This document shows positions 24,976 through 29,089 of a stretch of 64,000 bases of DNA, piece by piece (position 1 is the stretch's first letter; every line of letters begins with the position of its first letter). A model generated the notes under the pieces. That model saw nothing but the letters and a program-made list of their open reading frames with translations, was not told the origin of the DNA and made no database searches. Origin of the DNA: Oscillospiraceae bacterium (lineage in GTDB: Bacteria; Bacillota; Clostridia; Oscillospirales; CAG-382); the NCBI GenBank assembly GCA_015064955.1, contig SVRD01000006.1, forward strand, positions 40,714 to 104,713. The letters run 5' to 3'. The position numbers and the translations under genes are program-made.

Positions 24976-25335
24976 GTTACGGGTTGGCACCAACACTCCC
25001 GAAAACGGCAGATTTTCTATGCCCCGTCTGGTTTTGGGAATTGTTCGACACTCGTTATGTTACTGTTGTGAGTGCCGTTGGTAATGTTAATTTTGATATT
25101 ATATATGTACTGGCAAAACACAATTCTCCAGAAATCCAGTTTTCCAAGTATAATAGAGTAATATTAAACTTCCGAAACTTTTTCTTCGAAAGTTTTGATG
25201 TTTTTGGGAATCATAAACGAAAACTGTATATATGCGTATTATCGATGTGTTTGATATATTGAAAAGTCAATCGATATATGTTAAACTAATGCGAAAGTAG
25301 AAGAAATGAAGTAATACCACGATAAAGGATAAGAT

Positions 25336-26376
25336 ATGAATTTTACATTTAATGATTATATACTTGATGTGGATATTGAAAAAATGAAAAGTGTTATTCT
25401 GAAAAACTACAAATGCCAATGTGCAATTTGCAAAGCTTTTAGAGAATATGCGGACACTTTAGATGAAAATATAACAGCCAAATTGATTGCCTTGGGTGTT
25501 AATATAGAACGTCCTGATGAGGTTTTTGACATAGGCGAGGATGAAAACCAAAATGTTTGCTATTCCGGGTGGTGGAATATTTACGGGAAGATTCTAACAA
25601 AATCCCAAACACCTTACCAAATATCCGACGGCTTTGAGCTAACCTTCTGTGACGATAGCCAATATGCTCCGCGGTGGTTTCAAGGTAGTGACTATTTTCA
25701 AATGCGTTTTTTAATTCGCAAAAGCCAGCTAAAAAGAATTGGGAAGAAATATCAAGTAGGCGACAAAACAGTATTTTCTTACCATATAGGCGATAATGCT
25801 TGTGCAAATATGTATAATCTTATTGGCGGAAAGATTTTCAAGATTTATTCCGATAGTATTATAAAAAACGATGCTCAAATAAAGTGCCATAATGTGGAGA
25901 TTTTCATAGAAAACGAATCCCGTTATCAAAAGCTTTCACTTTCTGTATCGCGGGATTTAGATACCTGCTTTGATGGTATAGACCGAATGGCGCTAACACT
26001 TGATAGCGTTAACATTGACTCCACCGAAGCAGAGCTATTGCTACAAGATGATATCATTTCTTGCTCGATGGGAAAAATCAAATGTATTAAAGTTTTTGAA
26101 AGTACAATCGAGGGTGAAAACGACAAGGTTGTTTATGATTCTCACATCGTCATCGAGGACGACTTAGGGAAGAAACTTATCTTTCGTGCAGAGCCCGACG
26201 GTGAAGAAGTGATGACGGTTTTCACTGACATAGATGATAATGACGTAGAAAAATATCTTCGCGTTTCGGATACTTGGTTTGTAAATGACGATTCGGCTTT
26301 TTATGAAAACAACGAGATAGACGGCGTGAAGAATTGTTACAAAACCGAAACGAAACTTAGAGTTTTTGTGATGTAG
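25336..26376 (+). CDS. hypothetical protein (island cargo 1)
   Basis: 346 aa. AAAGGATAAG RBS. Acidic, with no signal peptide, TM helix or catalytic motif that I recognise. N-terminal CQCAIC cluster. Markedly AT-rich. Confidence 0.6.
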   Translation: MNFTFNDYILDVDIEKMKSVILKNYKCQCAICKAFREYADTLDENITAKLIALGVNIERPDEVFDIGEDENQNVCYSGWWNIYGKILTKSQTPYQISDGFELTFCDDSQYAPRWFQGSDYFQMRFLIRKSQLKRIGKKYQVGDKTVFSYHIGDNACANMYNLIGGKIFKIYSDSIIKNDAQIKCHNVEIFIENESRYQKLSLSVSRDLDTCFDGIDRMALTLDSVNIDSTEAELLLQDDIISCSMGKIKCIKVFESTIEGENDKVVYDSHIVIEDDLGKKLIFRAEPDGEEVMTVFTDIDDNDVEKYLRVSDTWFVNDDSAFYENNEIDGVKNCYKTETKLRVFVM

Positions 26377-26442
26377 AGTGGAGAGATGAAGGAGATGATG
26401 GAAATTTAATAACACAAAGAATTATTAATGAGGGGGATTTTA

Positions 26443-26994
26443 ATGAAATTCGATTTTGAGAAACTATCTAAAGAAGATTCGCACAAGATAAGGCAAAACT
26501 TCATTGATATGTTTGTCGATACATCTCATGATCTTTTTGTAAAGTATATACGGGATGTTAAAGCCGATGATATTTGGGAAGGTTATGGGCATATTGCGTC
26601 GTATTTGTTTGCCTGTTTAAAAAATAGTGTAAGTCATAAGGAATATACTAGTAAGGCGTTTGAATATTTGAATGGATTGAATAACAATGATACTCTCTTT
26701 GTTATGTTTGATGTTCGTCCCGCAAAACGAATTTATCCCGATGGTTGCCGTTCGATTGCTGAGCCATACACGAAATACTTTGATTCTGATATGGTTTTGA
26801 GAATTAAGGCAGATGATTTGTATAACGTTTTAATGCATGATTATAACAGTCCTGTGGGAAATCAGATATTTGGTGAAGATGTGTATGTGTTCGAGCCATC
26901 ATTTAAATGGTATATTGCTTTTACTCATAATTCTTTCGTAGATGATCAGGGAAGCGAATGTGGTCAGTATTGCTATTCTAATATAACATTATGA
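26443..26994 (+). CDS. hypothetical protein (island cargo 2)
   Basis: 183 aa from the ATG at 26443, after a GAGGGGGA RBS; the tracked start at 26428 overlaps the RBS. Cytoplasmic, with no recognised domain. AT-rich. Confidence 0.55.
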   Translation: MKFDFEKLSKEDSHKIRQNFIDMFVDTSHDLFVKYIRDVKADDIWEGYGHIASYLFACLKNSVSHKEYTSKAFEYLNGLNNNDTLFVMFDVRPAKRIYPDGCRSIAEPYTKYFDSDMVLRIKADDLYNVLMHDYNSPVGNQIFGEDVYVFEPSFKWYIAFTHNSFVDDQGSECGQYCYSNITL

Positions 26995-27054
26995 CTACAA
27001 GCGAAAACGTTGTTTTTAATTTACAATCGAAAGATGAATGTCGGTCACCACGTA

Positions 27055-27105
27055 CTTCCGGCACCACGAAACTCCCCAAGCTATATGCATGGGGGGTTGT
27101 TTTTG
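27055..27105 (+). repeat. att-like copy A: tRNA-Leu 3-prime 12-mer plus a diverged copy of its terminator
   Basis: cttccggcacca at 27055-27066 is identical to 24926-24937. The following cgaaactccccaagctatatgcatgggggg is homologous to gaaaagtctccaagttatatacttggag and is followed by a T-run. Confidence 0.65.
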
Positions 27106-27191
27106 CGTTTATATACGAGGGACGAAGGGCGCGTGTTGAATGACAGTCCGGGGGACTGTCAGACCGCGCCACCGCTCCGACCGCAGTCGGG

Positions 27192-27217
27192 CGACCCCCG
27201 CTTCCGGCACCAGAAAA
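27192..27217 (+). repeat. att-like copy B: 26-bp perfect direct repeat of the tRNA-Leu T-loop through CCA plus 5 nt
   Basis: cgacccccgcttccggcaccagaaaa at 27192-27217 is identical to 24917-24942. Confidence 0.85.
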
Positions 27218-27247
27218 CGACAGATTTCAAGGGGAATCTGTCGTTTT
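27214..27247 (+). terminator. hairpin terminator attached to copy B
   Basis: Perfect 13-bp stem aaaacgacagatt/aatctgtcgtttt with an 8-nt loop. Confidence 0.7.
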
Positions 27248-27248
27248 C

Positions 27249-27422
27249 AGTTATATTCGCCTTCGGCGAGTTATATTGCCTTGCAGTTATATTTGGCTTG
27301 CGCCAAGCTATATTGCCCGATGGGCAGTTTTGGAGGCGAATATAATATCACTGCTAAACTAAGTGAAGCAATATCACCACGAGCAAGGCGAGTAATATCA
27401 CTCCGTCGAAGACGGAATATCC
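27249..27422 (+). repeat. two families of short direct repeats, each unit followed by a GC mini-hairpin
   Basis: AGTTATATT at 27249, 27269 and 27285, and AGCTATATT at 27306. AATATCAC at 27344, 27370 and 27394, and AATATCC at 27416. Mini-hairpins include cgcc-ttc-ggcg, ttggc-ttgc-gccaa, tgccc-gat-gggca and tccgtc-gaa-gacgga. Confidence 0.7.
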
Positions 27423-27491
27423 TTAAAGTCTTACAATTTTGCAAAAGTCCGAATTCATACTAAAAAATGCCGAGGATATCTTTTTTTGTAG

Positions 27492-27509
27492 CCGGCACCA
27501 TGAAAAGTC
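27492..27509 (+). repeat. att-like copy C: ccggcacca(t)gaaaagtc
   Basis: Matches 24929-24945 (tRNA 3-prime end plus the first 8 nt downstream) with a single 1-nt insertion. A strong terminator follows immediately. Confidence 0.55.
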
Positions 27510-27540
27510 ACTTTTGTCTACGACAAAGGTGACTTTTTTC
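27503..27540 (+). terminator. strong rho-independent terminator with no upstream gene (possibly the ancestral tRNA-Leu terminator)
   Basis: 16-bp stem aaaagtcacttttgtc/gacaaaggtgactttt (one G-U pair), 3-nt loop, T-run. Confidence 0.75.
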
Positions 27541-27609
27541 AATGATATCAGTTCTTCGCGGAATGGGTGATATTTGTCTTTGGCATATAAGAAACAGATA
27601 TTATATTTA

Positions 27610-27638
27610 TTGACACAAATTTACAAGTATGGTATAAT
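27610..27638 (+). promoter_or_regulatory. glnA promoter
   Basis: TTGACA (27610-27615), 17-nt spacer with an extended -10 TGg, TATAAT (27633-27638). AAGGAG RBS before the ATG at 27665. Confidence 0.75.
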
Positions 27639-27664
27639 TAATCATAAATATAAGGAGTGGAAAT

Positions 27665-29089
27665 ATGGCAAAGACGATTCAGGATATACTTAATATTATT
27701 AGAGAAAACGGTATCAAAATGATCGACTTCAAAATGGTCGATATCAACGGTCAGTACAGACACGTAACCATTCCTGCCGAAAACTTTTCGGAGGATACAA
27801 TGAAGAGCGGCATCGGCTTTGATGCATCGAATTACGGATACGCTGTTGTTGAAAAGAGCGATATGGTGTTTATCCCCGATCCCGACACCGCGATGATCGA
27901 CCCATTCTGCGCGATACCCACTCTTACGATGACGGGCAACGCGATGATTATAGATTCGCCCGAAAACCGCCCCCTCGCTCAATATCCGCGCAATATCGTG
28001 CTTGCGGCAGATAAATATATGAAGGATTCGGGTGTAGCGGATACTATGCTTATTCTTCCCGAATTCGAGTTCTATCTTTTCGATAACGTCGCTTGGGACG
28101 TCGCTCCCAACAGTATCGGCGTAAATCTTGATGCGGTTCAGTCCTATTGGAACACCGCAAACGAGGGAAAGGGTGTAGTTGTTCCCAAGCAAAAGGCATA
28201 TCACATCGCAAAGCCGTTCGACGTTTCCTATGAGTGCCGTAGCGAAATGTGCCTGCATATGAAGGACGCGGGAATCGATATTAATTATCATCATCCCGAG
28301 GTTGCCGCTTCGGGTCAGTTCGAAATCGAGCCTCAGCTCGGCGAAATGACAAAGATGGCAGATGCCACTATGATGATAAAATATATCATTCATAACACCG
28401 CGCTTAAATACGGCAAAACCGCAACCTTTATGCCGAAACCCATTTACGGCGAAGCAGGAAGCGGTATGCACGTACATATGCTTCTTCTTAAGGATGGACA
28501 ACCCGTATTCTCAGATGATAACGGATATTCACATCTGAGCGAGACAGCACATTACTTTATGGGCGGCTTGCTTAAGCATATCGCATCTCTTTGCGCGCTC
28601 ACTAATCCCAGCACGAACTCGTTCAAGCGTCTTGTTCCCGGTTATGAAGCGCCTGTCACGATCGGATATGCGACATCGAACAGAAGCGCTGTTATCCGCA
28701 TTCCCGCGTATGCAAAATCCCCTGAAAAGCGCCGTTTTGAGCTTCGCAATCCCGATGCAACCTGCAACCCCTATTTCTGCTATGCCGCAATACTTATGGC
28801 GGGTATCGACGGTGTAAAGAACAAGATCGATCCCCACGCAAACGGCTGGGGTCCTTATGACGTCAACCTTTATCATTTGAGCGACGAGGAAAAGGCAAAG
28901 CTTCGCCATCTTCCTACCTCGCTCGAGGAAGCTCTCGATGCACTCGAAAAGGACAACGATTATCTTACCGTAGGCGGTGTATTCCCGAAGGAGCTTATTG
29001 CAAACTTTATTAAAAATAAGCGTGCGGAATGCCGTGAGCTTGCAAATATTCCTCATCCTGCTGAATTTGATAAGTATTATAACCTTTAA
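27665..29089 (+). CDS. glnA: glutamine synthetase, type I
   Basis: 474 aa. ATP-binding signature KPIYGEAGSGMHVHM. The length and N-terminal beta-grasp region are typical. Confidence 0.9.
   Translation: MAKTIQDILNIIRENGIKMIDFKMVDINGQYRHVTIPAENFSEDTMKSGIGFDASNYGYAVVEKSDMVFIPDPDTAMIDPFCAIPTLTMTGNAMIIDSPENRPLAQYPRNIVLAADKYMKDSGVADTMLILPEFEFYLFDNVAWDVAPNSIGVNLDAVQSYWNTANEGKGVVVPKQKAYHIAKPFDVSYECRSEMCLHMKDAGIDINYHHPEVAASGQFEIEPQLGEMTKMADATMMIKYIIHNTALKYGKTATFMPKPIYGEAGSGMHVHMLLLKDGQPVFSDDNGYSHLSETAHYFMGGLLKHIASLCALTNPSTNSFKRLVPGYEAPVTIGYATSNRSAVIRIPAYAKSPEKRRFELRNPDATCNPYFCYAAILMAGIDGVKNKIDPHANGWGPYDVNLYHLSDEEKAKLRHLPTSLEEALDALEKDNDYLTVGGVFPKELIANFIKNKRAECRELANIPHPAEFDKYYNL

Follow-up and report, generated by a model that had tools for sequence, protein, structure and literature searches.

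What are the closely packed 8-mers and GC mini-hairpins that lie between two copies of a tRNA-Leu 3' end in the window (the whole 64,000-nucleotide stretch of DNA analysed here), in a segment with no plausible gene? The preliminary description of this locus had seen two families of short repeats and had read them as the P and P' arms of an integrative element joined after loss of its interior, or as a miniature non-autonomous element, with iterons or an unannotated structured RNA as alternatives. Our motif scan of the window returned every motif at the position first given: AGTTATATT at 27249, 27269 and 27285 with AGCTATATT at 27306, then AATATCAC at 27344, 27370 and 27394 with AATATCC at 27416, where the minus strand reads GTGATATT; further matches lie at 27567–27574 (GTGATATT) and 27543–27550 (TGATATCA). 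The hairpins originally named (cgcc-ttc-ggcg, ttggc-ttgc-gccaa, tgccc-gat-gggca and tccgtc-gaa-gacgga) are likewise all present in the sequence, and each 8-mer unit is followed by a 4–6-bp GC mini-hairpin. Read on the opposite strand, AATATCAC becomes GTGATATT: a single motif, GTKATATT, is arranged as two convergent four-unit arrays, and the division into two motif families has to be given up. The clustering of this motif is locally far above chance: AGYTATATT occurs six times in 64 kb against 1.2 expected, with four of the six inside 66 nt, and GTGATATT six times against 2.5 expected, with four of the six inside 231 nt. A whole-element covariance model (R1) run over the 64-kb window matched at 27248–27424 (149.6 bits) and at a decayed copy at 27505–27620 (18.4 bits) and nowhere else. 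The view that the segment has no gene stands: the overlapping ORFs 27140–27463 and 27010–27345 have no Pfam match, and 1–2-nt indels in the hairpins among homologues show that the reading frame is not conserved; a small protein was rejected on these grounds. From left to right, the locus comprises:

27106–27212, plus strand: element X, the target of the insertion, a conserved structured segment of ~100 nt whose right-hand end is "att copy B" (27192–27217), 26 nt that repeat the 3' end of tRNA-Leu.

27213–27248, plus strand: P0, a terminator-type hairpin (GAAAACGACAGATTTC-AAGGGG-AATCTGTCGTTTTC) found by the terminator scan, the left end of the inserted unit.

27249–27326, plus strand: arm A, four units (A)GTTATATT/(A)GCTATATT at 27249, 27269, 27285 and 27306, each followed by a hairpin (hp1–hp4); Rfam Gut-1 match of 38.7 bits on the plus strand, and covariation.

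27327–27343, plus strand: linker and centre (GTTTTGGAG GCGAATAT); the 3' strand of helix H0, 27335–27346, pairs with 27250–27261.

27344–27423, plus strand: arm B, inverted units AATATCAC at 27344, 27370 and 27394 and AATATCCT at 27416, with hairpins hp5–hp7 between them; Rfam Gut-1 match of 34.9 bits on the minus strand, and covariation.

27424–27500, plus strand: the tail of the unit, ending ...ATCTTTTTTTGTAG plus CCGGCACCA (27492–27500, the right direct repeat, "att copy C"); locus L326 and Weinberg's tRNA-adjacent Gut-1 copies have homologous tails.

27503–27541, plus strand: terminator C, the resident terminator displaced by the insertion (inverted repeat I9); about 85% identical to the terminator right after X in locus L325.

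27540–27606, plus strand: an older array of arm-A type, now decayed (CAATGATATC.., GGTGATATT..), which immediately precedes the glnA promoter; Rfam Gut-1 26.3 bits, R1 18.4 bits, collinear with the GTGATG-type array of L325.

How the arrays came to stand here is answered by three relatives that keep synteny, reached through homologues of a CAAX protease (about 50% identity). In the first, L328, the order is tRNA-Leu, terminator, X, terminator, and the unit, the island and glnA are all missing. The second, L325, has tRNA-Leu, terminator and X, followed directly by a homologue of terminator C and an old array of the GTGATG type; its sequence after X aligns to the window from 27492 onward with a score of 69 and to the left end of the unit with a score of only 29, and P0 is missing from this empty site. 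The nine nucleotides CCGGCACCA of the tRNA-Leu 3' end stand at 27204–27212, where they are the last 9 nt of X and the left direct repeat, and again at 27492–27500. As L325 keeps the flanks and lacks the ~288 nt between them, 27213–27500 of the window is an insertion flanked by CCGGCACCA, in keeping with the earlier suggestion of a miniature non-autonomous element; core direct repeats and an empty site, as at an att-type integration, are both found at this locus. The third relative, L326, carries a full bipartite unit of the ATGAAG/CTTCAT type, with homologous P0 and tail, right after the tRNA-Leu CCA.

Two copies of the tRNA-Leu 3' end do flank the segment, as had been described; however, copy B is not an island scar but the 3'-terminal part of X, a tRNA-like element that is conserved and had no annotation. 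The X of the window and that of L325 share about 95% identity, a hairpin of X shows covariation in L328, and relatives without the island have X too; no Rfam family matches it. Terminator C, which follows the insertion, also served as the P0 of the older unit, and a further core-plus-terminator copy is found at 27046–27105. The 2.1-kb segment behind tRNA-Leu holds two ORFs of no known family (25336–26376 and 26428–26994); considered as a source of a trans-acting partner, they were set aside, with no match in Pfam, PHROGs, NCBIfam or PADLOC. A role of the unit as glnA leader or regulator was rejected as well: among 80 loci with GlnA at 79–88% identity none has the unit or tRNA-Leu upstream, and in the synteny-keeping relatives glnA is absent from the tRNA-Leu locus. 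Among contigs with identical GlnA, compared for strain polymorphism, the region is 100% identical throughout.

Following the suggestion of an unannotated structured RNA leads to a known family. Rfam cmscan matched the window to RF01706, Gut-1, at 27248–27318 on the plus strand (38.7 bits), at 27340–27425 on the minus strand (34.9 bits) and at 27540–27606 on the plus strand (26.3 bits). None of these three window matches reaches the RF01706 gathering score of 50 bits; several homologues of the window element exceed it (54–63 bits), and the cmscan alignment of the window shows the short hairpins and the repeated GUGAWAU motif of Gut-1. Two rows of the Weinberg 2010 Stockholm supplement (BAAZ01025322 and BAAZ01000095) match the window nearly base for base (AGUUAUAUUCGCC...GCGAAUAUAAUAUCAC), also behind a tRNA terminator, the order in the rows being terminator, AGUUAUAUUCGCC.., AUUGCCUGCGGCAGUUU..GCGAAUAUAAUAUCAC and an inverted AAUAUCAC array; the window P0 has homologues both in Weinberg's Gut-1 rows, a compensatory change (C:G to G:C) separating it from these, and in L061. 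On these alignments we assign the window element, itself a sub-threshold match, to the orphan Gut-1 family as a divergent, new member. Gut-1 was found in human-gut metagenomes and in no sequenced organism, and its function was not given (Weinberg 2010, PMC2864571). Gut-1 and the window element have in common three or four short GC hairpins with a repeated GUGAWAU-type 7–8-mer between them; however, the Rfam model describes a single arm, whereas the full unit has two arms and a polarity, running from P0 through arm A, the centre and the inverted arm B to the tail, with closure by H0. The bipartite polar unit, the named Oscillospirales MAGs, the insertion and the link to a PF05635 gene are all absent from the 2010 description.

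A pattern scan of one genome per species identified about 34 copies of the unit, and overall there were ~40 homologous loci; the copies come from Oscillospiraceae, Acutalibacteraceae, Ruminococcus, Christensenellaceae and unclassified Clostridia MAGs (gut, rumen). All 34 parsed copies follow one polar plan: P0 hairpin, CA, arm A, centre and inverted arm B. Arm A runs M1 (GTTATATT or GTTTTATT), hp1 (CGCC-loop-GGCGA), M2, hp2 (GCTTCGCA), M3, hp3, M4 and hp4; the centre reads GTTnnGG, GCGAATA[T/A/G]; and arm B runs M5 (AATATCAC), hp5, M6, hp6, M7, hp7 and M8. The motif differs by subfamily (GTKATATT, GTGAAAT, ATGAAG or GTGATG) and is uniform inside one element. Covariance models (A2, R1) were built from 23 copies, and true copies scored 75–188 bits against about 30–78 bits for their reverse strands; the higher forward scores indicate a fixed polarity of the element.

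Covariation among the homologous segments, a check suggested at the outset, was strong. In the seven local hairpins paired cells make up 95.3% against 73.6% in shuffles, and double changes number 152 against 44; none of 500 shuffles reached the observed values, and slid controls fell to 29–42% paired. Selection acts on the spacers to keep them hairpin-forming. In addition, there is a long-range helix, H0, newly found here, in which M1 and the 5' half of hp1 (27250–27261) pair with the centre (27335–27346). Its variable position N:N' is complementary in all 23 aligned copies (A-T in 12, T-A in 7, C-G in 2, G.T in 1 and T.G in 1), the two wobble cases being compatible with plus-strand folding. 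In a wider set H0 is complementary in 28 of 30 copies, the exceptions being L061, a misregistered call, and L004, a decayed copy; the helix is respelled in the GUGAAAU-type rows (CCACCC/GGGUGG) and in the ATGAAG-type unit, and it is part of the minimum-free-energy fold of the plus-strand RNA (z = -5.7). Pairing between the arms (M1:M8 through M4:M5) was tried and rejected, with no covariation and systematic T.C mismatches.

The stems are nearly all Watson-Crick: in about 1,000 pairs there are 13 G.T and 8 A.C, both rare. On the plus strand the loops of arm A are C(TNC)G and those of arm B are C(GNA)G or GNRA, so that C(GNA)G loops appear when arm A is read on the minus strand and arm B on the plus strand; given these mirrored loops, each arm keeps the polarity of the "8-mer plus hairpin" unit. 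The classic loop of very stable DNA minihairpins, which can extrude from supercoiled DNA, is C(GNA)G. The near-purity of the Watson-Crick stems and the loop polarity argue for a structure that matters at the DNA level or on both strands. Terminators bracket the unit, which is in line with DNA; against a DNA-only reading, the covarying hairpins, the GNRA loops and H0 fit RNA equally.

The contexts of other units bear on insertion too. In the first set of copies the unit lies directly 3' of a co-oriented gene or stable-RNA gene (exceptions as to co-orientation are L336 and L339). Ten copies are behind intact tRNAs of eight kinds, one is behind tmRNA and one behind an rRNA-5S-tRNA operon; others are behind groEL, atpC, a pyrophosphatase and further genes. 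P0 is the terminator of the upstream gene, and where P0 is without a T-run of its own M1 becomes GTTTTATT. Among the Weinberg rows three different tRNAs have an identical unit (P0, arrays and a ~70-nt tail) behind their CCA, and tandem copies occur at 240-nt spacing; the window P0 and tail are homologous to those tRNA-adjacent units. L079 and L067 have P0, the arrays and 86 nt in common and differ in their upstream genes, and in L079, L109 and L027 a bidirectional terminator is interrupted by the unit. Copy number is low, with one full and one decayed copy in the 64-kb window, and no unit was found in ~0.5 Mb from related genomes. Flanking repeats vary, from 9 bp here through about 5–7 bp in L079 to none at other tRNA-adjacent copies. 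Across the loci examined no recombinase or transposase was associated with units. A derivative of a MITE or DDE transposon was rejected: the ends are P0 and a tRNA-like tail instead of terminal inverted repeats, the flanking repeats are not of fixed length, and there are no copies in the ~0.5 Mb from relatives. As regards palindrome-associated elements of the IS200/IS605 type, which would leave no duplication, there is a hairpin 1–5 nt from the left end and insertion is right after ...CCA in a fixed orientation, yet a 9-bp repeat flanks the unit here and a tnpA/tnpB partner was not seen. A phage origin was rejected too, with one true unit among the 120 viral-contig pattern matches listed.

A protein gene is linked to the unit. 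Downstream of 6 of the 34 units there is a promoter and a 116-aa gene of PF05635, the family of 23S rRNA-intervening-sequence proteins, or "four-helix-bundle proteins". A protein search returned 7,940 PF05635-family matches, the best 120 of which were at 83–96% identity and mostly on very short contigs, and a search that started from the protein identified six further independent loci, each with a full unit (140–179 bits). In all 12 independent loci of this one PF05635 clade, in unrelated contexts, the unit ends 20–50 nt before the start codon, and among the sequences compared the clade's gene occurs only beside units. Homology between loci extends from P0 to the stop codon only, which defines a cassette of ~0.6 kb. 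In most of the four-helix-bundle loci M8 adjoins the -35 box (AATATAAC followed at once by TTGAAA-17-TATAAT). L334 has the order tRNA-Thr CCA, P0, unit, unit, gene and partial units, and, with no promoter between M8 and the ribosome-binding site, its array must share a transcript with the four-helix-bundle gene. There is no PF05635 gene beside the window copy or anywhere in the 64-kb window, and the window copy is therefore a solo unit; with the gene beside only about one unit in five, and none in the window, the assignment of the partner is correlative. The entry for a homologue of known structure, PDB 2RLD, lists five chains, and Avd, a related DGR protein, is a nucleic-acid-binding pentamer.

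The reading that we favour, tentatively, is that 27213–27500 is a small mobile Gut-1 cassette, present as a solo copy without a gene, and that its arrays bind a cognate protein. The cassette would have been planted right after the ...CCA end of the tRNA-Leu-like X and before X's terminator, bringing its own terminator P0, two convergent arrays, H0 to close arm A, and a tail that mimics a tRNA 3' end. Each array would keep four conserved 8-mers single-stranded between GC mini-hairpins, and the arrays together could serve as a multivalent docking platform for a trans-acting protein, the top candidate being the Avd-like PF05635 protein that the full ~0.6-kb cassette encodes immediately downstream. 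A motif that is subfamily-specific and uniform within an element suggests a private partner, as does the failure of the arms to pair with each other, and these features are harder to reconcile with a housekeeping factor or a self-pairing RNA; because the gene is invariably adjacent, the PF05635 protein is the best candidate. Membership of the family, the architecture, the covariation of the hairpins and of H0, the insertion and the link to the four-helix-bundle gene are shown by the comparisons above; binding of the 8-mers by this protein, DNA hairpins and not RNA as the active form, and the manner in which the cassette moves are what we infer. In our reading, the arrays are neither integrase arm sites nor a glnA regulator. 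One may speculate further, though this more specific picture is rather unlikely as a whole, that the arrays and the gene for a probably pentameric Avd-like PF05635 protein form a previously unrecognised type of selfish cassette: the four or five single-stranded 8-mers per arm would wrap the protein ring, the cassette would home to terminator-hairpin apices and to tRNA, tmRNA and tRNA-like genes at their ...CCA ends by a route like that of 23S rRNA intervening sequences (IVS), possibly assisted by RNA or reverse transcriptase, and solo arrays would be left behind.

Of the other explanations the one that survives best, possible if somewhat unlikely, is a free-standing structured sRNA, with transcription of the whole element or of each arm: its hairpins would offer the 8-mers to an RNA-binding factor, which they would bind or soak up as a sponge, or else the array would be a 5' leader of the four-helix-bundle gene. 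Gut-1 is classed as certain RNA by Rfam and by Weinberg 2010 (PMC2864571); the strong covariation, the frequent GNRA tetraloops and the presence of H0 in the RNA minimum-free-energy fold agree with this, as do the L334 array, which stands between a tRNA and the four-helix-bundle start codon, and the tandem 240-nt copies, which resemble sibling sRNA genes. However, P0 and M1 form an intrinsic terminator right before arm A, which leaves no space for a promoter there, and central divergent promoters were rejected, as the TATAAT-like centre has no -35 box, lies inside H0 and is not kept in the GUGAAAU subfamily. Further, wobble pairs are nearly absent and without strand bias, the mirror-image loop preferences of the two arms are not explained by a single transcript, and the motif differs between close lineages at the same tRNA-Leu locus.

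Quite improbable, in our estimate, is the explanation with which the locus was first approached, namely that the arrays are arm-type sites (P' and P) for a tyrosine integrase or excisionase and that the ~290-bp unit is a bare attP integrated at the core CCGGCACCA. In lambda attP the two sets of arm-type sites are mutually inverted, as the two arrays are here; the unit length of 240–330 bp is that of an attP, 9-bp direct repeats flank the unit and L325 provides the empty site, insertions are at the 3' ends of tRNA, tmRNA and other genes, and the motif is subfamily-specific. However, none of about 40 units has an integrase beside it, the nearest thing being a fragment of a large serine recombinase about 1.2 kb away from the variant L048; nor is there a second tRNA-end core downstream of the other tRNA-adjacent units, over the 0.2–6 kb of sequence that each locus offers. 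The same unit stands behind three different tRNAs with a right end that does not match, site spacing varies from 16 to 26 bp, and the conserved centre, H0 and the covarying hairpins have no explanation in a role as double-stranded arm sites. The derived version, P and P' arms joined after loss of an interior, is not supported either, since the bipartite array, with its conserved centre and covarying H0, recurs intact in about 40 loci.

A fail-safe bidirectional transcription insulator, in which the arms are weak hairpin-plus-U-rich terminators against RNA polymerase coming from either side behind highly expressed stable-RNA and housekeeping genes, is very improbable. It would fit the position right behind tRNAs, tmRNA, the rRNA operon, groEL and atpC, the change of M1 to GTTTTATT at a P0 without its own T-run, the convergence of the arms and the terminators at both ends of the unit. 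However, stems of 4–6 bp followed by AGUGAUAUU are poor terminators: with an intrinsic terminator defined as a GC-rich stem of at least about 5–7 bp with a T-run immediately after it, hp1–hp7 provide none on the plus strand, where P0 and terminator C qualify and P0 is the only one within the unit, and the minus strand has one weak 5-pair site (27391–27374) within the hp6/M6 region. The strict subfamily-specific 8-mer, H0 and the four-helix-bundle link also have no explanation in a U-tract role, and this model, like the iteron model, accounts for fewer features. Least probable of all are double-stranded iterons, that is, operator, centromere or origin repeats bound cooperatively, for instance at an autoregulating promoter adjoining M8 in the four-helix-bundle cassettes: the site spacing of about 20–24 bp, the -35 box beside M8 in most of those loci and the fit, a lead only, of TATCACT to WATCACW, the heptad bound by omega repressor, are in its favour, but hairpin-preserving covariation in the spacers has no role in dsDNA binding, the spacing is irregular and solo units are not consistently beside promoters.

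Returning to the favoured reading of a mobile cassette with a cognate protein, its interest lies first in Gut-1, an orphan since 2010 that is now placed in named Oscillospirales lineages. The bipartite polar unit, the closure of arm A by H0, the insertion at ...CCA ends and terminator loops, and the PF05635 link are new; our literature searches found no mention of Gut-1 after Weinberg 2010, and nothing beyond that paper on the function of the 8-mers, Gut-1 or PF05635. The PF05635 gene tied to Gut-1 in 12 of 12 loci is very abundant and highly conserved, and the tie turns two unknowns into one testable protein-nucleic-acid pair. For annotation we would caution that arrays of this kind behind tRNA genes are not to be read as att arms of islands or as regulators of a neighbouring gene (here glnA).

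Among known systems, supercoil-extruded C(GNA)G mini-hairpins are found in the promoters of the phage N4 virion RNA polymerase and in the d(GCGAAGC) minihairpin. The Gut-1 hairpins are like these in having 4–7-bp stems, a C-G closing pair and GAA, GCA or GTA triloops; unlike them, they come in arrays of seven with conserved linkers, and no phage context came to light, with a single true unit in the 120 viral-contig pattern matches listed. Lambda-type attP sites and CIME-like elements at tRNA genes resemble the window element in the short flanking repeat of the tRNA 3' end, the attP size and the two inverted sets of repeats, and, as at CIME-type loci, several elements have accumulated behind one tRNA gene here; in contrast to both, Gut-1 has no integrase, its hairpins and H0 are under selection and most copies are without flanking core repeats. 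BOX and REP/BIME elements are likewise modular, extragenic and hairpin-rich, lie 3' of genes, have complementary ends that close repeated modules and are in some cases tandem; Gut-1 differs in its low copy number (the 64 kb here hold one full copy, and about 0.5 Mb from related genomes none) and in conserving a single-stranded linker and not a palindrome, and a RAYT/IS partner was not identified.

The 23S rRNA IVS of Leptospira, Coxiella and Campylobacter carry an S23p/PF05635 ORF. Arrays of 8-mers and mini-hairpins are not a described feature of IVS, and the targets of Gut-1 are terminator loops and tRNA or tmRNA ends with no rRNA involved, so that the relation is best regarded as an analogy. 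The likeness, however, is that of a small structured non-coding insertion with a PF05635 gene, placed at the hairpin apex of an RNA gene or at the 3' end of a stable RNA, and if the pairing of Gut-1 with its PF05635 protein is confirmed it may bear on how 23S rRNA intervening sequences spread.

At the tRNA-Leu locus of the window, several features surround the unit, the Gut-1-type (RF01706) insertion whose first part is the hairpin/terminator P0:

24943-27105, a 2.1-kb segment immediately 3' of tRNA-Leu
24985-25040 (approximate), a P0-like remnant in this segment
25336-26376 and 26428-26994, the two ORFs of the segment
27046-27105, a further copy of the tRNA end with a terminator, bounding the segment
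27106-27212, element X, of ~100 nt, GC-rich and structured
27540-27640 (entry span), a decayed older array with motifs ATGATATC and GGTGATATT
27610-27638, the glnA promoter, perfect and sigma-70-type (TTGACA-17-TATAAT with TG)

The two ORFs had no match in Pfam, PHROGs, NCBIfam or PADLOC, and the terminator loop sequences of the segment are AGTTATAT and AGCTATAT. Element X, whose terminal 26 nt are identical to the tRNA-Leu 3' end and which has its own terminator in relatives, is ~95% identical between the window and the related locus L325, while the CAAX proteases of the same pair share only ~50% identity. One of its hairpins shows covariation in L328, a second relative, and no matching family was identified in Rfam; element X may be an unannotated tRNA-like RNA.

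The decayed older array adjoins the glnA promoter and is collinear with a GTGATG-motif array of L325. In the window, glnA (27665-29089) lies between the insertion pile-up and DUF3810; in the relatives L325 and L328 the interval from tRNA-Leu to DUF3810 is only 0.5-1.6 kb and lacks glnA. The 80 closest GlnA loci lacked the tRNA-Leu synteny. Taken together, these comparisons suggest that glnA may have been relocated into the tRNA-Leu hot spot of the window.

The orthologous tRNA-Leu site of a third relative, L326, carries a unit of a third motif subfamily, and further units were found at other loci:

L326 4480-4760, minus strand, an ATGAAG-type unit (ATGAAG five times, CTTCAT four times)
L096 2910-3493 (entry span), a unit directly 3' of tmRNA
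L098 1943-2853 (entry span), a unit directly 3' of the tRNA that closes an rRNA-5S-tRNA operon
L018 4080-6252 (entry span), two unit copies, L018a and L018b
L025 1727-1760, an inverted tRNA T-arm fragment, TGGATTCGAACGACCGAA, 17 nt past the unit
L334 1003-2090, in order the CCA of tRNA-Thr, P0, a tandem pair of full units, the PF05635 gene, three partial units of which two are truncated starts, and a terminator
L048 1240-3900, a variant with arm A and centre, then a promoter with a gene for a 70-aa XRE-type HTH protein

The L326 unit shares its P0, long-range helix H0, bipartite layout and tail with the other subfamilies. It was missed both by R1, our covariance model of the full unit, and by the pattern scan, which means that the superfamily extends beyond the GTKATATT and GUGAAAU types. 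The L096 unit looks like a recombinant of the two L018 copies, with a left flank that corresponds to L018a and with an arm B and right flank that correspond to L018b. In L025 a tRNA-Tyr precedes the unit, and the inverted fragment mirrors it.

The tandem units of L334 have a 200-nt period, and no promoter separates the final 8-mer from the ribosome-binding site there. In L048, the promoter and HTH gene replace arm B and are followed, on the opposite strand, by an ORF resembling Cu/Zn-SOD and by a fragment of a large serine recombinase. A protein search showed the unit-linked PF05635 four-helix-bundle clade to be extremely abundant and conserved (83-96% identity in the top 120 clusters), its members lying mostly on contigs of <2 kb, which is what one expects of a sequence whose multiple copies break assemblies.
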